Source of the DNA: a virus
Virus record (IMG/VR): IMGVR_UViG_3300045988_053446
Coordinates: 1-56,558 of that record
Direction: 5' to 3' (one strand)
Length of the DNA: 56,558 nucleotides
The notes beneath the pieces were generated by a model. That model ran no database searches. It saw only the letters and a program-made list of their open reading frames with translations, and was not told the origin of the DNA. Of the stretch, positions 5,074-17,691 are shown piece by piece; the first letter of the stretch is position 1; every line of letters starts with the position of its first letter. The position numbers were made by a program, and so were the translations under genes.

Positions 5074-5089
5074 AATATTTTCCCTTTCT

Positions 5090-5155
5090 GGTCTGCCATC
5101 ATCAGAGCCGCGGCGACCGTCCCGCGGCTGACGCTCCGGTGTGGAGCGTTTCGAC
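5090..5155 (-). ncRNA. hammerhead-like self-cleaving ribozyme candidate HH-A (type II topology)
   Basis: GUC-GAA-ACGCUCC/GGAGCGU-C^-AGCCGCGG/CCGCGGCU-CUGAUGA. Loop I GGUC is complementary to tail GACC. The 10.1/11.1 pair is not canonical. Confidence 0.5.
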
Positions 5156-5496
5156 TAAAATTTACAAGGCTTTTCATAGCGGATGACCGCTACCGTCTCG
5201 CCCGTGCTTGCAAGTGTTCCCCAGCCGTTCCACACAGGACCATTCAAGCCCAATAACTTAGGCTGGTTATATAGTTCTTCTCTCTGGCTTTCTGCAAGTC
5301 TGCCGTTATTATAGCCATAAACAAGGCTTTCAAACTCTGCTGCTGTCTTGATTTCCATTGGTAAATCGTAAACGCATTTTGCGCCGCTTTCTAATGTTCC
5401 TATAATCATAATCTTGTACCGTTTCGCCGAATATGATATAATCGGCTTACCTTTCTTTTTGATTGGTGGCGGTTGTGTGTCTTGGCAGGATTGCAA
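5155..5496 (-). CDS. hypothetical protein; start uncertain (TTG at 5496 or ATG at 5409)
   Basis: ORF track. No clean RBS for either start. Confidence 0.5.
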   Translation of the reverse strand: MQSCQDTQPPPIKKKGKPIISYSAKRYKIMIIGTLESGAKCVYDLPMEIKTAAEFESLVYGYNNGRLAESQREELYNQPKLLGLNGPVWNGWGTLASTGETVAVIRYEKPCKF

Positions 5497-5520
5497 CCGC
5501 CTTATTTATTTTGTAGCTTA

Positions 5521-5549
5521 ATAATAACACCTTATATGGTGTATGTCAA
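5521..5549 (-). promoter_or_regulatory. sigma-70-type promoter for the minus operon
   Basis: TTGACA-17-TATTAT on the minus strand. The spacer holds the near-palindrome AACACC-N6-GGTGT. Confidence 0.55.
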
Positions 5550-5586
5550 CACCTTTTAAGATGTTTTTTGATTTTGTTTTTAAGTG

Positions 5587-5615
5587 TTGCAAAACTGCAA
5601 TATTTTATATATAAT
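5587..5615 (+). promoter_or_regulatory. sigma-70-type promoter for the HTH gene
   Basis: TTGCAA-17-TATAAT. GTGTTG abuts the -35 box. Confidence 0.6.
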
Positions 5616-5646
5616 AGAAAAAACAAAACAGAAAGGAGCTTGCGAA

Positions 5647-5874
5647 ATGCTTACATATAAAATAGATGTATTAAAAGAGCTGGCGCAGCGTGGCTACACT
5701 GCTAACAGAATGAGAAAAGAGAAGATATTGAGTGAAAGCACGATGCAGAATTTGAGGAATAAAAGCGATATTAATACAAAGACATTAAATACATTATGTA
5801 TTATTTTAAGATGTCAGCCAAGCGATATAATAGAGATAGTACCAACAGACGACGAAAAGATAAAATATTTTTAA
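5647..5874 (+). CDS. XRE/Cro-type helix-turn-helix regulator (75 aa)
   Basis: GAAAGGAG RBS. HTH-like segment ...SESTMQNLRNKSDINTKTLNTLCIILRCQPSDIIE. Confidence 0.7.
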   Translation: MLTYKIDVLKELAQRGYTANRMRKEKILSESTMQNLRNKSDINTKTLNTLCIILRCQPSDIIEIVPTDDEKIKYF

Positions 5875-5876
5875 AT

Positions 5877-5921
5877 AACACTAAAAATAGTGTTGACAAT
5901 ATAATGCTATCGGTATATAAT
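5877..5921 (+). promoter_or_regulatory. consensus promoter with a perfect palindromic operator overlapping the -35 box
   Basis: TTGACA-17-TATAAT. Operator is AACACT-N6-AGTGTT at 5877..5894. Confidence 0.65.
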
Positions 5922-5970
5922 CAAGGTACATTAAAAGAAAGGGCAGCGGAAACGCTGGAAGGTGGAAAGG

Positions 5971-6165
5971 ATGAAAACAATCGAATTATTAAACAAGGCT
6001 GTTGAGCTTGGATTTAGCAGAGAAAAGGCGCTTGCAGACATAGACGCAAATCTTGATGAAGTGATTGGAGCAGAAAACAGAAAGCCAATCGCAGAAGAGG
6101 AAATAAGCGAAGAGCTGGCGAATGATATTTTATTCGGGTTTGAATGTGAAAAAGAAAACAATTAA
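5971..6165 (+). CDS. hypothetical acidic protein
   Basis: ATG at 5971 with GGAAGGTGGAAAGG upstream. Confidence 0.55.
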   Translation: MKTIELLNKAVELGFSREKALADIDANLDEVIGAENRKPIAEEEISEELANDILFGFECEKENN

Positions 6166-6839: not shown

Positions 6840-7499
6840 ATGGAGAAAGTACAGGAAACAGCAGAAACGCCCGAAGTATTTCAAAATGACATAGAACTGT
6901 ATTTATCGCAGTTCTGCGAAGAACACAACATTGAAGATATGACAAAAGAACCACAGAGCAGATGGAACGCCGCTCTGATGTATATAAATAAATATGTTTT
7001 TAGTGATAAAAGTATATTAAAATTAAATAAGAATATTAATAAAAATAATACTAATTGCATTATGGATAGTAATTTTTATATGTATGATTATGATAAATTA
7101 GAGTATATATTATATATATATTATTATTTATGTGCTGTATATGATAAAGAATGTAGTATAATGGGATATAGCTTATTAACTGGTATTAATTACGATACAT
7201 TAATGGATTGGGGAGCAGATGAAAGGAAACTAAGTACAAAAGGCTTCGATATCGTGCAAAAACTGCGCATTTTTCGTGAAGAGAGTCTATCAAATAAGCT
7301 CGCAACTGGCAAAAAAAATCCTGTCGGCATCCTTGCAATACTTAACAGACATTATGCTTGGAATCTTCCAGGCGTGAGCAGAGAAAGTGCCGCAAAGGTC
7401 ATTAAGACCGCGTCGGAGCTTCCACAATTGAGCCAAAACAATACACAATTAACAGATAACCAGCAGATAAACGCTATAAACAATTCAGACACAATTTAA
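6840..7499 (+). CDS. terS: terminase small subunit-like protein
   Basis: C-terminal pattern ...ATGKKNPVGILAILNRHYAWN... is typical of Firmicutes phage small terminases. ATG at 6840 with GGGGGA RBS. Confidence 0.5.
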   Translation: MEKVQETAETPEVFQNDIELYLSQFCEEHNIEDMTKEPQSRWNAALMYINKYVFSDKSILKLNKNINKNNTNCIMDSNFYMYDYDKLEYILYIYYYLCAVYDKECSIMGYSLLTGINYDTLMDWGADERKLSTKGFDIVQKLRIFREESLSNKLATGKKNPVGILAILNRHYAWNLPGVSRESAAKVIKTASELPQLSQNNTQLTDNQQINAINNSDTI

Positions 7500-7551
7500 A
7501 CAGCTTGTAAACCGCTTAAATACTGGGTTTATGAGTGCTAAGCATTTATAT

Positions 7552-7631
7552 AACGCTGATAAATTAAGGTTTATCGGCGTTATGGTACAGATATAGTGTG
7601 AATTGTGTTAATTGTTTGAAATATCTGTACC
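7552..7631 (+). other. two long hairpins in the terS-mazG intergenic region
   Basis: AACGCTGATAAA/TTTATCGGCGTT (12 bp, one G-U pair) at 7552..7581. GGTACAGATAT/ATATCTGTACC (11 bp) at 7584..7631. Confidence 0.6.
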
Positions 7632-7755
7632 AAGCAGACGCAATTTTATAGATAGGGACTGGGGGTTGTTAGCCTCCAGGATTTTGCCCCAACTAAGTCG
7701 CTCAAATATTCTCAAAAATAAAAAGGTTTATTATATTTATATATACACATTTATT

Positions 7756-7772
7756 TATATATATATATATAT
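7756..7772. repeat. (TA)8 dinucleotide microsatellite inside a very AT-rich spacer
   Basis: Read directly from the sequence. Confidence 0.8.
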
Positions 7773-8009
7773 TTACATACCCAATAATTAATAACTTATT
7801 AACCCATATATAATAATCAATATATTTATCAATATAACCTTAATAAAACCTATATAATTTAATCAATAATTACTGTACAAATCCTATAAATAGGTGTATA
7901 ATAAACACAGTTAATTTAATTCTAAAGATTTTACAAACACACATCAGATACCGATTATTCAATCGGGCTATTTCCAAAAAAATTTTAAAACATAAAAAAG
8001 GGGTTAGAA

Positions 8010-8426
8010 ATGCAGGGCAATGAATACCAAAAATTGGCTATGCGTACTAACGATAAAAAGGCTCATTATAGATTAAGTACTGAATTAACTGGCAAGCTTC
8101 CACTTAGTCCTCTAACAGAAAACAATGCTAAGTGTAGCAACATAAATGACATAGCAGGACTTCTTAATGGTGTCTTAGGTTTAACTGGCGAAGCTGGCGA
8201 AGTATCAGACCTTGTTAAAAAGGGCATATTCCACGAAAAAGGCATAGACCTAGAACATCTTAAGAAAGAGTGCGGCGATGTAATGTGGTACATTGCTATG
8301 ATTTGTGAATCTTGTGGATTCAGTCTTGATGATGTAATGCAGACAAACATAGATAAACTTATAGCACGTTATCCGGATGGTTTTGACACTTACAGAGCTA
8401 ATCACAGACAGGCAGGTGATAAATAA
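8010..8426 (+). CDS. mazG: MazG-like nucleoside triphosphate pyrophosphohydrolase
   Basis: Motifs ...LTGEAGEVSDLVKK... and ...ECGDVMWYIAMI...IDKLIARYPDGF. Confidence 0.85.
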   Translation: MQGNEYQKLAMRTNDKKAHYRLSTELTGKLPLSPLTENNAKCSNINDIAGLLNGVLGLTGEAGEVSDLVKKGIFHEKGIDLEHLKKECGDVMWYIAMICESCGFSLDDVMQTNIDKLIARYPDGFDTYRANHRQAGDK

Positions 8427-8596
8427 TGGGTAATCAGGATAAGCACTGTTACCAGTGCAAACATAGACATAAGTTATATTGTGAAAAGCCTTGTAATGCC
8501 TGTAATGGCAATCCAAATGTTGTAAAAGGCAAGGATAACTTCACAGAGCTTGAAACAGCAAATAAAAATGCAGTACTCTTTGAAACAAAAGAATAG
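8426..8596 (+). CDS. small Cys-rich (CxxC...CxxC) zinc-ribbon-like protein (56 aa)
   Basis: ATG overlaps the mazG stop (TAATG). Below the ORF-track cutoff. Confidence 0.45.
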   Translation: MGNQDKHCYQCKHRHKLYCEKPCNACNGNPNVVKGKDNFTELETANKNAVLFETKE

Positions 8597-8601
8597 CATA
8601 T

Positions 8602-8673
8602 TGCCCCTTAGCCAAGTGGTCAAGGCACAGGATTTTGATTCCTGTATCGTGGGTTCAAATCCCACAGGGGTAG
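8602..8673 (+). tRNA. tRNA-Gln (anticodon UUG)
   Basis: Hand-folded cloverleaf. Acceptor TGCCCCT/AGGGGTA with U1-A72. Anticodon stem CAGGA/TCCTG with loop TTTTGAT. T-arm GTGGG-TTCAAAT-CCCAC. Confidence 0.85.
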
Positions 8674-9096
8674 TTCAAGTGTTTAATTACACTTGTGCCT
8701 TTACAGGACTTATTGGCTTACTAGCATTAAGTCCTCCTTTCACCTCATAGCGAGAGCTGTTAAGGACTGTCAGATAGTCCGTGAGGTTTTGCGTATTATA
8801 AATACGCAAATAAAATTAAGTTATACCTATAGCGCAGCAGTTATCTGTATGGATAGACAGCGAGCGAAGCTACTTTCTTTGAGCCCAACTGCACGGGTAG
8901 AATGACATCCAAGCTTTGCCACGACCTGTTATAGGTGTCATAGCCTATACTGCTATTAAGGCTAGCACTTTATATTCCCTCAAAACAATATTTTTAAGCG
9001 TATAAATGACCTCTAAAGAATTTATAAATGTGAATTGTTTAATCTCTCTGTGCTAGTCTTTTTTATTTCAACTTGTCAGAAATTCTTACAAGTTGA
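8674..9096 (+). ncRNA. hairpin-dense non-coding stretch between two tRNA genes; candidate large structured RNA (class unknown)
   Basis: At least 8 local helices of 5-9 bp. Examples are 8676/8689, 8705/8728, 8742/8782, 8764/8776, 8788/8802, 8902/8935, 8941/8959 and 9069/9088. No RBS-supported ORF. Confidence 0.45.
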
Positions 9097-9168
9097 CGGA
9101 TAGTAGTTCAGTTGGGAGTAACGCTTGATTTATTCAAGTAGTCACAGGTTCAAGTCCTGTCTATCCGA
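9097..9168 (+). tRNA. tRNA-like gene whose best 7-nt anticodon loop ATTTATT gives anticodon UUA (ochre-suppressor type); D-stem irregular
   Basis: Perfect acceptor CGGATAG/CTATCCG. T-arm ACAGG-TTCAAGT-CCTGT. D-arm GTTC-AGTTGGGA-G(T)AAC. Anticodon arm CTTG-ATTTATT-CAAG. Confidence 0.55.
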
Positions 9169-9170
9169 TT

Positions 9171-9231
9171 ACAACAAACTAGCTTGACGAAGCGAAAAGC
9201 ACAAGCCTTAGTGCCTGTTTGTTGTTTTGTT
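9171..9231 (+). terminator. terminator-like long hairpin after the tRNA cluster
   Basis: ACAACAAAC...GTTTGTTGT with inner GCTTG/CAAGC, followed by TTTGTT. Confidence 0.5.
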
Positions 9232-9267
9232 AATAAGGCAGTTATCAGAAAGGCAGGTAATAATATT

Positions 9268-9750
9268 ATGAATTTTGCAGAAAATGAAAATTCAAGAATA
9301 CTTCCTAATGTTCAAAGCCCTATAATCTATTTTCTTATGGATGAGGACGAGGTTGTTTATGTTGGACAATCTAAAATAGGATTAGCAAGACCATATTCAC
9401 ATAAAGATAAAAAATTCACCAAAATAGCAATTATTAATTGTAAAGAAAGTGAATTGGATGATAAAGAAACAGAATTTATCAAAAAATATAAGCCGAAATA
9501 TAACAAGAAAGCCGGAAATAGTGATTATTCATACACTAGAATAAAAACAATAATCAAAAGTCAAACGAATATTCACAGCTTTAATGTGTATGATGTAAGA
9601 AAGCTTGTGACAAAACTTGGATTGAAAACTTATATTTTCAATGGGAGCATTTATATAAACGCAGAAGATTTTAATAAAATGTTTACTTTTGTGAAAGAAA
9701 CAAGTAATGGGGTTAAAAATAAAGAAGAATGGAAGAAAAAAGTATTTTAA
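9268..9750 (+). CDS. GIY-YIG domain nuclease (homing-endonuclease-like)
   Basis: IIYFLMDEDEVVYVGQS...ETEFIKKYKPKYN. ATG at 9268 with AAAGGCAGG RBS. Confidence 0.65.
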   Translation: MNFAENENSRILPNVQSPIIYFLMDEDEVVYVGQSKIGLARPYSHKDKKFTKIAIINCKESELDDKETEFIKKYKPKYNKKAGNSDYSYTRIKTIIKSQTNIHSFNVYDVRKLVTKLGLKTYIFNGSIYINAEDFNKMFTFVKETSNGVKNKEEWKKKVF

Positions 9751-13608: not shown

Positions 13609-15333
13609 TTGGCTTCAAAGCAGTTAATCAATGCGGTAAATGGATATGAAAACTACATACAGAGAAAAGGCGTTGATGAACAGGTAATTAATGCCTATGT
13701 AGACGCTTGCAGTGTAGCCATAAACGGCGAGAAAGATATTGAGTATGGACTACAACTTACAGAAAGGACAAAAGAGCTTATAGAGCGTTTCTGCAAGGAT
13801 AAGACAGGTGGAACGATATGGGATTTAGAGAAGTATGCGTTTGCAAATAAAACGGAATATGAGCTGATTAATTGGTTTTACGATATTTTACTGATTGAAG
13901 CGCAAAACAAGGTTGTTGACAGCGGATTTAGGTATCTTGAAAAGAAAAGAGAGCCTAAAGAGCGATTTTATATGCCACGCCGCAAACAATTTATAAAAAT
14001 GGGGCTAACAGAAGCATTACAAGGTATGATTGATGATAAATACGATATATTATGCGTGTCATTAATACCAGGAGCAGGGAAAACAACCATTGAAAAAATG
14101 TTCAATGCTTTAGTGGCCGGCTGGTTTCCTAATGACTTTTGCCTTTTTTACTCTCATTCGGGCGACATTACACGAATGTACTACGATGGCGTGTATGACA
14201 TTGTTACAAATTCTGACGAATATGCGTGGAATGAAATTTTCCCTAATCTTACAGTTACAAGCACCAATGCAAAGCTGGAACAGTTCAATGTAGGTAAATA
14301 CAAGCCATTCCCTAGCATACAATGTACATCTGTTGGCAGTAAAAATGCTGGTAAAGTTCGTGCAAGCAAATTTTTGCTTGTAGACGATATGATAGGCGGT
14401 ATTGAAGAAGCACTTAATCCTATGGTACTTGATAAGCTATGGGATAAATATGCGGTAGATGCCAGACAAAGAAAAATTCAAGATACGGACGGACATAACT
14501 GCAAAGAAATACATATTGCTACACGCTGGAGCGTACACGATGTTATTGGCAGAATACAAAATATGTACGCAGGGAATAAAAGAGTTAAGACTATCGCTGT
14601 GCCGGATGTTGACCCAGTGACAGGCGAGAGCAACTTTGATTATGAATATAGTGGATTTACGAAAGAATTTTTCGCGGACCAGCAGTTATTAATGGATGAG
14701 ATATCATATCGGTGCTTGTACAAGCAGGAGCCTATAGAGCGTGAGGGATTGCTGTTTCCAGATGATAAAATCCGAAGATACCTTAATTTGCCACACGGAG
14801 AGCCAGAAATTATCACAGCTCAATGCGACACAAAAGGAAAAGGTACAGATTATTTTGTACTGCCTGTATTGCAAAAATACGGAGAAGATTATTACTGCGT
14901 TGATTGTGTGTGCGACAACACAGCAGATTATGAAGAACAATACAGAAATGCTGCAGGTGTACTTGTAAATAACAAAGTGCAAGAGTGCGAATTTGAGCGT
15001 AATGCCGGTGGCGACAGGGTTGCAATGGAAGTTAATAAGCGTGTTGAGAGTGTAGGTTGGATATGTAATATTACAGATACGCCTACAGAAACAAACAAAG
15101 AGGCAAGGATTTTTCAATGTTCCAACTGGATTTTGCAACACATTATTTTTAAAGACGCATCGCTTTACAAACCTAATGAACCATACGGAGTAATGATGTC
15201 GTTGCTAAAACAGTATTCAGTATCAGGAAAGAAACAGCTTGATGATGTTCCAGATGTATTTTCAAATTTTGCATTGAGAATGACAAAAGGAAATCGGGTT
15301 AAAAAAACAATCATTATGTCAAGCCCAATATAG
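13609..15333 (+). CDS. terL: terminase large subunit
   Basis: Walker A-like LIPGAGKTT and Walker B-like FLLVDDM. 574 aa, directly upstream of the portal region. TTG start. Confidence 0.85.
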   Translation: MASKQLINAVNGYENYIQRKGVDEQVINAYVDACSVAINGEKDIEYGLQLTERTKELIERFCKDKTGGTIWDLEKYAFANKTEYELINWFYDILLIEAQNKVVDSGFRYLEKKREPKERFYMPRRKQFIKMGLTEALQGMIDDKYDILCVSLIPGAGKTTIEKMFNALVAGWFPNDFCLFYSHSGDITRMYYDGVYDIVTNSDEYAWNEIFPNLTVTSTNAKLEQFNVGKYKPFPSIQCTSVGSKNAGKVRASKFLLVDDMIGGIEEALNPMVLDKLWDKYAVDARQRKIQDTDGHNCKEIHIATRWSVHDVIGRIQNMYAGNKRVKTIAVPDVDPVTGESNFDYEYSGFTKEFFADQQLLMDEISYRCLYKQEPIEREGLLFPDDKIRRYLNLPHGEPEIITAQCDTKGKGTDYFVLPVLQKYGEDYYCVDCVCDNTADYEEQYRNAAGVLVNNKVQECEFERNAGGDRVAMEVNKRVESVGWICNITDTPTETNKEARIFQCSNWILQHIIFKDASLYKPNEPYGVMMSLLKQYSVSGKKQLDDVPDVFSNFALRMTKGNRVKKTIIMSSPI

Positions 15334-16134: not shown

Positions 16135-17691
16135 ATGCAGACAGGAAGAATTGTATTAACAACGGATGTTCCGGAAATAACATATGAAAATGTGTTAGAT
16201 GTATTAAGAGATGTCTTTTCAACACACATACAAAACGCCAACAGAATACAGTATCTTCTTGATTACGATGCAGGAATACAGCCGATAATTAGGAAGAACC
16301 CTAAGACTTACAGACCGGACATTGATTGTGAGTGTATAGATAATGTCGCTCATCAAGCATCAGAATTTTGGACTTCATTCGCTTGGGGAAATCCTATTTC
16401 ACTTGTGCAGAATGGTGATGGAAAAGAGAAATTCGTCGCAGACGGAATATCAGAGCTTAATAAACAGTACGAACTTGCAAAGATTAAAGCAAAGACACAA
16501 GACTTGGGAAGATATGTAACAATCGGGGCAATATGTAATGTTCTTGTAGACGTGAATATGGAATGGAAAAAGAATAAACCATATTTTACATTAGACATAT
16601 TAGACCCACGAACATCATTTGTAGTGAAGTCAAGCTATTATTCCGATAAGCGAACAATGATGGGCGTTACTTACAGACACGATAGAATAACCGGGAACAA
16701 CTACTACACTTGCTTTACAAAAGATTTCCGCTTTGAAGTGGTTAATCTCAATAAGATTGCGAACGGAGATTATACGAAAAAAGAAGCGTGGAGGCATCAA
16801 CAAAGAAGCGGGGAAGTGAATCCACTTGGAATTGTGCCAATCATTGAGTATTTCCGGTCATATGACAGAATGGGAGTTTGGGAACATCAGAAATCAGAAT
16901 TAGACAATCTTAACTTGCTTATTTCTGATTTTACTAACGATGTTGAACAGAATACACAGGCAGTTTGGCATACAAATGATGTTGATTTCCCTGTAGAGAG
17001 AAAAGTTACAGACAATGAGGATGGCACGCAGACTATTGAAGAAACTGTAAGGAAACCAAAATCTGGCGAGTGGATGCAGACTTATACATCGGCGGACGGA
17101 AAGACACCAATTGTTGAATCTCTTGCAATTAATTACGATTACACAGGGATGCTCAATAACATCCAATATCGTAGAAATAAGATACTTGAAAAATGCAACG
17201 TGCCACTTACTAATGACAATGCATCTAACATAACAGGTGTTGCGGCTAGTAATGCAAGTGGATGGGACCACGCAGAGGCAGCAGCAACAAAGTTACAGAT
17301 GATAACCGAAAGCTGCAAAATGGATGAACTAGAAGTAGTTCTTGCGGCTATTGATAAAAGTCCGTATGTCCCACAAGATAGCCCATTAAGACTTATAAGC
17401 CTTGAGGATATTGAAATTAACATTAAGAGACAAAAGCTATATGAGTTATCAACAAAAGTCAACAGTATAGCAACACTTATTAATGCAGGCATTAATGGAG
17501 GAAAAGTACTTAATGCAATTCCTGTATTTGACGACCCTAACGAAGTTTGGGAAGCAAGCAAGGAAACAGTCGAAAAAATACAAAAGAGCAACATTAAAGA
17601 TGATGCAACTAACAATGACCGCATAATGCAAGATTTGAGCGACCAAGTTAGCAACAGCCCTCTGATTGATAAGAGCAGAACAAATAAATAA
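16135..17691 (+). CDS. portal protein
   Basis: 518 aa, positioned after terL and before the scaffold and capsid genes. Confidence 0.8.
   Translation: MQTGRIVLTTDVPEITYENVLDVLRDVFSTHIQNANRIQYLLDYDAGIQPIIRKNPKTYRPDIDCECIDNVAHQASEFWTSFAWGNPISLVQNGDGKEKFVADGISELNKQYELAKIKAKTQDLGRYVTIGAICNVLVDVNMEWKKNKPYFTLDILDPRTSFVVKSSYYSDKRTMMGVTYRHDRITGNNYYTCFTKDFRFEVVNLNKIANGDYTKKEAWRHQQRSGEVNPLGIVPIIEYFRSYDRMGVWEHQKSELDNLNLLISDFTNDVEQNTQAVWHTNDVDFPVERKVTDNEDGTQTIEETVRKPKSGEWMQTYTSADGKTPIVESLAINYDYTGMLNNIQYRRNKILEKCNVPLTNDNASNITGVAASNASGWDHAEAAATKLQMITESCKMDELEVVLAAIDKSPYVPQDSPLRLISLEDIEINIKRQKLYELSTKVNSIATLINAGINGGKVLNAIPVFDDPNEVWEASKETVEKIQKSNIKDDATNNDRIMQDLSDQVSNSPLIDKSRTNK

Follow-up and report, generated by a model that had tools for sequence, protein, structure and literature searches.

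The stretch of viral DNA analysed here, referred to as the window, is 56,558 nt long (IMG/VR virus record IMGVR_UViG_3300045988_053446), and this report deals with the segment that separates two of its tRNA genes. An initial annotation, made from the letters alone, had proposed that this hairpin-dense segment is a structured RNA, in a unit that follows mazG and a small zinc-ribbon open reading frame (ORF). The upstream context was found as described, with MazG at 8010-8426 (Pfam, 4.3e-13) and the CxxC...CxxC ORF at 8426-8596. The operon has the order mazG, small ORF, tRNA-Gln, new RNA, suppressor tRNA, int-alpA, and consists of the following features:

7874-7902: promoter-like site upstream of mazG, the best of several in 7500-8010
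8010..8426, + strand: mazG-like nucleotide pyrophosphohydrolase gene (Pfam PF03819 MazG, E 4.3e-13)
8426..8596, + strand: ORF of 56 amino acids with two CxxC pairs, zinc-ribbon-like (from the ORF list); its stop lies 5 nt before tRNA-Gln
8601..8674, + strand: tRNA-Gln(UUG), with no CCA encoded (ARAGORN; Rfam tRNA, 66.3 bits)
8675-9068, + strand: the new RNA
9097..9168, + strand: suppressor tRNA with anticodon UUA, reading UAA (ARAGORN; Rfam tRNA RF00005, 51.6 bits; scaffold comparison)
9172..9238, + strand: int-alpA RNA motif, a terminator-like stem with a U-run (Rfam RF02996, 58.9 bits, gathering score 35.8)

On the + strand, the 422 nt that separate the two tRNAs (8675-9096) fold with an energy of -120.6 kcal/mol, compared with -90.5 +/- 4.9 for shuffled sequences (z = -6.16), whereas the - strand of the same 422 nt reached a z of -3.04 only. 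Homologous loci are conserved in related phages and present compensatory base changes, so that both the fold and the comparison bear out the proposal of a structured RNA. The segment contains only short unsupported ORFs, as expected from the earlier statement that no ORF backed by a ribosome-binding site (RBS) lies between the tRNAs. In conclusion, 8675-9068 is a structured non-coding RNA of ~395 nt on the + strand. Placing the RNA between the tRNAs was thus right, but the initial annotation had also included the last hairpin (9069-9095), and the RNA proper stops at ~9068.

With permissive filters, no family of Rfam 15 was found in 8675-9096 at E <= 10 (cmscan of 8400-9400). The covariance models of GOLLD and ROOL had no match in 8400-9400 at E <= 10, and GOLLD had none in the whole window at its gathering score. 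Therefore, the RNA is not GOLLD, ROOL, a ribozyme or a riboswitch, nor is it tmRNA, RNase P, signal recognition particle (SRP), 6S or Y-like RNA, as Rfam models these. The possibility of a new class, raised at the outset, is in line with this search: judged against Rfam, and with the catalogue of PMC10690425 uncompared, the RNA is a new class within a known kind, the large phage RNAs that lie by tRNA genes.

Two parts of the RNA were modelled separately. A universal core, Core A, is described by the covariance model R1, and a 3' domain by the covariance model R2; the E-values obtained with these models are rough, as their calibration was shortened. The features of the segment are:

8676..8695, + strand: H1, 5'-terminal hairpin CAAGUGU/ACACUUG, starting 2 nt past tRNA-Gln
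8705..8735, + strand: H2, hairpin AGGACUUA/UAAGUCCU, with variants in relatives
8729-8792, + strand: Core A (model R1), a hairpin, then the CUCCUUUC tract, then a three-way junction
8734..8741, + strand: tract CUCCUUUC, unpaired from 8736 in the minimum free energy fold
8742-8747 with 8782-8787, + strand: Core A P1
8748-8751 with 8756-8759, + strand: Core A P2
8760-8763, + strand: Core A junction UUAA
8764-8768 with 8776-8780, + strand: Core A P3, with a 7-nt loop
8788..8810, + strand: H4, hairpin UUUGCGUAU/AUACGCAAA; four or more distinct hairpin sequences take its place in relatives
8834..8958, + strand: lineage-specific 3' domain (model R2, 139.5 bits)
8836-8841 with 8949-8954, + strand: H5
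8842-8845 with 8852-8855, + strand: H5a
8856-8860 with 8926-8930, + strand: H6, with conserved G.U pairs
8864-8870 with 8913-8919, + strand: H7, with conserved G.U pairs
8883-8886 with 8895-8898, + strand: H8, with the invariant loop AACUGCAC
8931-8935 with 8944-8948, + strand: H10
8958-8968 with 9050-9060, + strand: H11, long-range closing stem of 11 bp, AAGGCUAGCAC / GUGCUAGUCUU, with variants in relatives
9069..9095, + strand: H12, hairpin separated by 1 nt from the suppressor tRNA and restricted to loci in which that tRNA comes directly after it

R1 had a single match in the window (8729-8792, 83.4 bits); elsewhere it scored 63-90 bits in long-type lineages, 44 bits for one copy in the contig L201 and 17-27 bits in the short forms described below. 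The consensus of the junction is P1 / UAGC-loop-GCUG / UUAA / 5-bp P3 / G / P1'. In 49 distinct Core A sequences, 96.8% of the cells were paired and 10 of the 15 pairs showed double changes. The covariation score was 0.391, against 0.125 for shuffles (none of 500 reached the observed value) and at most 0.068 for slid controls. Covariation of this extent argues strongly that the RNA structure is under selection. Hardly any variation was seen in the tract CUCCUUUC across these 49 sequences, which come from at least six lineages. The RNA was assigned to the + strand on the evidence of an invariant U.G in P2 and of conserved G.U pairs in both H6 and H7; read from the opposite strand, each of these would be a mismatch.

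The 3' domain was examined in a model-guided alignment of 40 distinct sequences, with 92.9% of the cells paired and double changes in 16 of the 32 pairs. Its covariation score of 0.199 exceeded that of shuffles (0.120; 0 of 500 reached it) and of slid partners (no more than 0.095). Pair counts from MAFFT alone were weak, with one subtype misaligned, and the model-based alignment was used instead. Because this alignment is model-fitted and the lineage shallow, we rate the evidence for the 3' domain as good, not decisive. No R2 match was found outside the lineage of the window, and both the 3' domain and the closing stem are specific to that lineage.

H1, H2 and H11 are kept in relatives with other sequences. 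In relatives, H1 occurs at the same position as GCAAGUA/UACUUGC or ACAAGUG/CACUUGU, and H2 as GAACUUA/UAAGUUC enclosing another inner hairpin, while other lineages carry unrelated hairpins at the position of H2. H11 encloses a variable AU-rich insert (81 nt in the window), and three stem sequences were found for it in relatives, namely AAGACUAGCAUUGU/ACAAUGCUAGUCUU, AAACUGGCACUUUG/CAAAGUGUCAGUUU and that of the window itself. The U-run on its 3' side (9059-9068) reads UUUUUUAUUU in both the window and the L002 type, and is weak in the commonest variant, in which tRNA-Tyr comes next (UCUUUUAA, only UUUU). H11 was not called by the terminator scan (8958-9068). As judged from its distribution among relatives, H12 travels with the suppressor-tRNA module and is outside the RNA proper.

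Five of the seven helices listed in the initial annotation hold. CAAGTGT/ACACTTG (8676-8695) and AGGACTTA/TAAGTCCT (8705-8735) are preserved in relatives with changed sequence, ACCTCA/TGAGGT around GGACT/AGTCC (8742-8787) shows compensatory changes, four different hairpin sequences were found in relatives in place of TTTGCGTAT/ATACGCAAA (8788-8810), and CAACTTGT/ACAAGTTG (9069-9095) is retained in relatives that have the suppressor tRNA directly after it. ATGACAT/GTGTCAT (8902-8941) would form a pseudoknot across nested helices; it was 81-84% paired in the alignment and, by eye, is missing from three of the six subtypes in the aligned sequences. TAGCCT/AGGCTA (8941-8964) lacks support, as its central C-G pair is kept in only 3 of 48 sequences and it conflicts with better-supported helices. 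The helices that had been missed are the long-range ones within 8836-8954 and the closing stem (8958-8968 with 9050-9060).

Conservation of the RNA extends to hundreds of related gut-phage contigs of ~55 kb. Loci carrying it were fetched in numbers of 80, 117, 71 and at least 119, and all 80 loci retrieved through MazG have the segment after tRNA-Gln. Identity among relatives is 75-99% over 8675-8967, and the remainder has a modular make-up. Most relatives have two inserted genes, tRNA-Tyr and tRNA-Ser(GCU), separating the RNA from the final tRNA. Recombination between contigs exchanges blocks of the RNA and provides natural helix variants. A shorter form of the RNA (~211 nt, for example in L013) has only Core A in common with the window, and the same is true of the lineages N1 (L280-L359), N2 (L299) and N3 (L307), of L201 and of Dulem virus 39 (L279). 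Six or more phage lineages carry Core A. The closest GenBank relative of the window is Dulem virus 39 (terminase 82.6% identical), which was obtained from lemur faeces, and near-identical contigs derive from human-gut metagenomes. A blastn search of GenBank phage DNA gave matches to tRNA-Gln only, and a Core A query against the same DNA gave nothing at E <= 1.

Core A occurs among tRNA genes. Among the matches listed, a tRNA gene on the same strand was found within 700 nt in 136 of 136 distinct contexts, and a tRNA gene on the opposite strand within that distance in none. In 123 of these 136 contexts, tRNA-Gln(UUG) ends less than 200 nt upstream, directly before Core A. The next downstream tRNA varies (Tyr, Ser, Arg, Glu, Met, Ile, Asn or suppressor). 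As its tRNA neighbours are constantly present and co-oriented, the element is a component of phage tRNA arrays. Public collections were scanned by exact patterns, and the family probably extends beyond the matches listed here.

The pattern scan of 185,579 genomes yielded one true match, L201, a 54,996-bp contig of a metagenome-assembled genome (MAG) assigned to Bacillota. It was observed that this contig carries tandem three-way junctions at 1750-1805 and 1827-1891 (44 and 72 bits), only the second of which is preceded by CUCCUUUC. Both sit in an ORF-free gap of ~880 nt which runs up to tRNA-Asn (1379-2262; folding covered 1700-2262). Nine further matches in the same scan were dismissed as chance reverse-strand ribosome-binding sites, and odd matches outside the phage family in the metagenome scan were likewise chance ribosome-binding sites.

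The initial annotation had pointed to GOLLD and ROOL as possible relatives. The likeness is one of kind: large ornate non-coding RNAs of undefined function, often in prophages, by tRNA genes and perhaps co-transcribed with them. GOLLD is longer, about 800 nt. The window RNA also lies in phage DNA near tRNAs, as the window encodes a terminase and a portal and the tRNA neighbour is present in the 136 of 136 contexts listed. It differs from both families in that its sole universal core is the CUCCUUUC tract with the three-way junction and in its tight link to tRNA-Gln(UUG). GOLLD and ROOL sit near tRNAs in prophages, and ROOL averages 581 nt with six multistem junctions (Weinberg et al., 2017; PMC5737381). 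Compared with ROOL, the window RNA is shorter (~395 nt against the 581-nt average) and has fewer supported multistem junctions: Core A contributes one, and the model of the 3' domain two branch points.

Phage T4 offers a second comparison. RNAC and RNAD of T4 are smaller than the window RNA, at about 140 nt and less. They resemble it as non-tRNA RNAs within a phage tRNA cluster that are transcribed with the tRNAs; a difference is that we infer the processing of the window RNA. RNAC and RNAD come from the tRNA region of T4 and have undefined roles (PMC3014915). A catalogue of 10,006 candidate phage RNAs is reported by Fremin et al. (2023; PMC10690425).

The nearly invariant tract resembles the 3' end of 16S rRNA. 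The nine bases CCUCCUUUC (8733-8741) are identical to the 3' end of B. subtilis-type (Firmicutes) 16S rRNA. The ACCUCCUUUC of the short forms shares ten bases with that end, the anti-Shine-Dalgarno tail of Bacillus 16S rRNA being 5'-GAUCACCUCCUUUCU-3'. The position of the tract just 3' of a hairpin is a further likeness, as 16S rRNA has helix 45 there. The resemblance stops at this point: there is no other similarity to small-subunit (SSU) rRNA and no Rfam SSU match in the window RNA, and the tract is internal instead of a free 3' end, with its first four bases paired in H2. RsaE/RoxS and RNAIII of Firmicutes also present an unpaired pyrimidine-rich RBS-complementary motif beside stable helices; they are host RNAs of ~100-500 nt with several C-rich loops and mapped targets. 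The window RNA differs from them by having one conserved tract and no enrichment of CU motifs. It shares with small RNAs (sRNAs) that target Shine-Dalgarno sequences an unpaired RBS-complementary motif (CUCCUUUC, predicted to be unpaired from 8736); no mRNA target with extended complementarity was found within the window.

These observations suggest a sequence of events. The RNA would be co-transcribed with the neighbouring tRNAs, and RNase Z would cut the precursor behind tRNA-Gln, RNase P where the following tRNA begins. As tRNA-Gln encodes no CCA, RNase Z should, according to Firmicutes processing, cut right after its discriminator. The terminal hairpins H1 on the 5' side and H11/H12 on the 3' side may shield the RNA from exonucleases, and because of this protection it would build up as a stable RNA, much as T4 RNAC and RNAD do. 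The three-way junction could then act as a scaffold from which the tract either pairs in trans with purine-rich sequences resembling Shine-Dalgarno sites or binds a factor recognizing the 16S 3' end; the speculative outcome is a modulation of translation initiation during infection. Taken as a whole, a structured RNA of the tRNA operon that is excised, stable and trans-acting through its tract is the best explanation we can offer, and we lean slightly towards it.

Several points weigh against this explanation. Sequence diversity is low (effective sequence numbers of 3.35 for R1 and 1.27 for R2), and the alignments behind the pair counts had been fitted to the models. In the window, H2 engages 2 nt at the start of CUCCUUUC, or 4 nt of the longer CCUCCUUUC, in pairing. 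The opposite strand of the tract reads as a perfect ribosome-binding site, which could explain part of its conservation. An extended complement of the tract was found nowhere in the window besides the locus itself and ordinary ribosome-binding sites, GAAAGGAGG-like sites occur there at chance level, and extra CU-rich motifs were enriched over shuffles in only 1 of 10 RNAs, from one lineage. A multivalent anti-Shine-Dalgarno sponge was considered separately and dropped as a general feature, CU-rich motifs being not enriched in the other nine.

A more specific form of the trans-acting RNA, which we put forward tentatively and regard as rather unlikely, is that a gut-phage RNA mimics the 16S rRNA 3' tail: excised by RNase Z and RNase P, it would expose CCUCCUUUC on the junction scaffold and reprogram or protect initiation. 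It could capture the Shine-Dalgarno regions of mRNAs, or titrate a factor recognizing the 16S 3' end, for instance Era, a defence toxin cleaving the anti-Shine-Dalgarno tail, or a maturation RNase. No phage RNA was found described as an anti-Shine-Dalgarno mimic in the literature, the 10,006-candidate catalogue (PMC10690425) not being compared.

The trans-acting RNA has to be set against a cis-acting spacer, an explanation that we hold to be improbable. The segment would organize cleavage by RNase Z, P, III or Y, protect the tRNAs beside it or attenuate read-through into the (suppressor) tRNAs that follow, and would have no function in trans. Such a role would suit an RNA that is always inside same-strand tRNA arrays and whose 3' parts are modular and exchanged between lineages, as spacers would be, and H11 followed by UUUUUUAUUU in the window and the L002 type could act in attenuation through its stem and U-run. 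However, the U-run is the weak UCUUUUAA in the commonest variant, with tRNA-Tyr next, and H11 escaped the terminator scan. Moreover, neither the invariance of an 8-nt single-stranded tract nor the sequence conservation of the three-way junction across six lineages and several tRNA neighbours would be required of a spacer.

The shape of Core A raises the question of a tRNA-derived decoy, that is, a tRNA relic without T-arm that would soak up host tRNA-targeting nucleases or tRNA-binding enzymes. P1 can be compared with an acceptor stem, UAGC...GCUG with a D-arm and P3 (5 bp, 7-nt loop) with an anticodon arm; the UAGC after P1 recalls tRNA positions 8-11, and in most lineages the P3 loop has U at position 2 and a purine at position 6 (GUCAGAU, GUCGCAA, GUCACAA, CUUACGA). 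A decoy within tRNA arrays would complement the replacement set of tRNAs of the phage, and the relative Dulem virus 39 has an RtcB RNA ligase. Yet Core A (8742-8787) had no Rfam tRNA match at E <= 10 and ARAGORN was silent; T-arm, CCA and discriminator context are missing, with only two hairpins inside P1. P3 loops are 5 nt long in the short forms and in L201, and the putative anticodon is not constant (CAG, CGC, CAC, UAC). As the invariance of CUCCUUUC would also be left unexplained, we consider a decoy unlikely.

That Core A is a catalytic or ligand-binding RNA, either a self-cleaving ribozyme aiding the cleavage of tRNA precursors or an aptamer, appears less likely still. It is compact, with variable covarying stems and invariant junction or single-stranded nucleotides, and phage genomes are rich in self-cleaving ribozymes, including a type II hammerhead at 5087-5156 of the window. 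Nevertheless, no ribozyme or riboswitch family of Rfam matches, attempts to draw a pseudoknot of the tract with the loops of P2 or P3 gave nothing consistent, and no expression platform follows Core A.

Finally, we give very little credence to a minus-strand element, in which the tract would be the Shine-Dalgarno sequence GAAAGGAGG and the junction the 5' leader of a tiny ORF or an antisense transcript: the reverse complement UGAAAGGAGGACUUAAUG is indeed a perfect ribosome-binding site with AUG, followed in several lineages by mini-ORFs of 1 to 5 codons, but the downstream frames are inconsistent among lineages (5, 3 or 1 codons, or a long frame antisense through a tRNA), the invariant U.G of P2 and the conserved G.U pairs of H6 and H7 would become C.A mismatches, this strand folds worse (z of -3.04 compared with -6.16) and the nearby genes and tRNAs are all on the + strand. 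The minus-strand ORFs behind the apparent site, which differ in every lineage, were rejected as candidates.

The function of the large phage RNAs that lie by tRNA genes (GOLLD, ROOL, T4 RNAC and RNAD) has eluded explanation for years. To these the new family adds a short, invariant and exposed sequence with a candidate partner, either Shine-Dalgarno sequences or proteins recognizing the 3' end of 16S rRNA, and since the tract is exposed and its candidate partner obvious, the mechanism is directly testable. The family is common in human-gut phages, with hundreds of contigs in several lineages, and because its operons also carry suppressor tRNAs, the new RNA may belong to a broader phage toolkit acting on host translation. 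If it were only a processing spacer, it would still provide a well-defined new motif for annotation and for Rfam.

The initial annotation had called the gene at the downstream end of the segment tRNA-like; it is a tRNA gene, and the vague description can be replaced. The match at 9097-9168 is above the gathering score of RF00005 (51.6 against 29 bits), and this second tRNA is a genuine ochre suppressor tRNA with anticodon UUA. Its acceptor stem holds a G3:U70 pair, and as this is an alanine identity element, the tRNA should insert Ala at UAA. Among close relatives (L002, L005, L006, L049 and L016), the same scaffold occurs with UCA (opal suppressor) or UGC (Ala). The array of L016 opens with a tRNA that was called with anticodon UUA, where the other loci have tRNA-Gln(UUG). 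The long ORFs of the window end with 30 TAA, 14 TAG and 12 TGA, and wholesale recoding is therefore not indicated in the window.

The terminator-like hairpin proposed to end the unit is present and was re-identified as the Rfam int-alpA motif (9172-9238), with a match that spans the full model (positions 1-71). It is the probable end of the transcription unit, and the mazG-like gene is presumed to be its first gene. Like the new RNA, int-alpA is a phage-associated RNA motif without assigned function, here present at the same locus; it is a separate element, placed after the last tRNA and outside the new RNA. It was found directly 3' of the last tRNA in the window and in the relatives examined. 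The gene that follows it is a weak GIY-YIG-like ORF (9268-9750), neither an integrase nor alpA. Upstream of mazG, 7500-8010 is an AT-rich non-coding stretch of ~500 nt with TA-rich simple repeats and several promoter-like sites. The 56-amino-acid CxxC...CxxC ORF (8426-8596) had no Pfam match. Tailed-phage genes of the window include a large terminase (13609-15333) and an SPP1-type portal (16135-17691).

Some observations were made on individual relatives. In Dulem virus 39 (PP511791.1), a protein-coding gene (5381-6022) instead of the RNA directly follows tRNA-Gln, and Core A comes after tRNA-Ser(UGA); its annotated RtcB RNA ligase gene (8460-9665) lies just before the terminase. In lineages other than that of the window, the Core A-bearing RNAs of L289, L295, L353, L307 and L279 (~6940-6975) share a second motif that resembles an H-type pseudoknot, CYGCA-CAG(NNNN)U-UGCRG-ACAUAAAAU-(N'N'N'N'), the loop-to-tail pairing of which covaries (GCCA/UGGC, GCUC/GGGC, GCCC/GGGU, GUCC/GGAC). 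The counterpart in the window, ACUGCACGGG...GACAU, is only loosely like this motif (CYGCACAG...UGCRGACAUAAAAU), and its topology differs. Downstream of the short-form RNA, L087, L097, L114 and L155 carry tRNA-like acceptor halves (GATGTGT...ACCACATCA) that are 100-200 nt apart, which suggests intron-containing or disrupted tRNAs. In some relatives a much longer gap follows tRNA-Gln before ARAGORN calls another tRNA, 609 nt in L053, L069 and L078 and 1267 nt in L066; part of the added sequence of L066 looks like a long ORF and may encode a homing endonuclease. Elsewhere in the window, the type II hammerhead ribozyme (5087-5156, - strand) is full length (Rfam RF02276, 58.1 bits compared with a gathering score of 37) and adjoins an ORF on the same strand (5155-5496).

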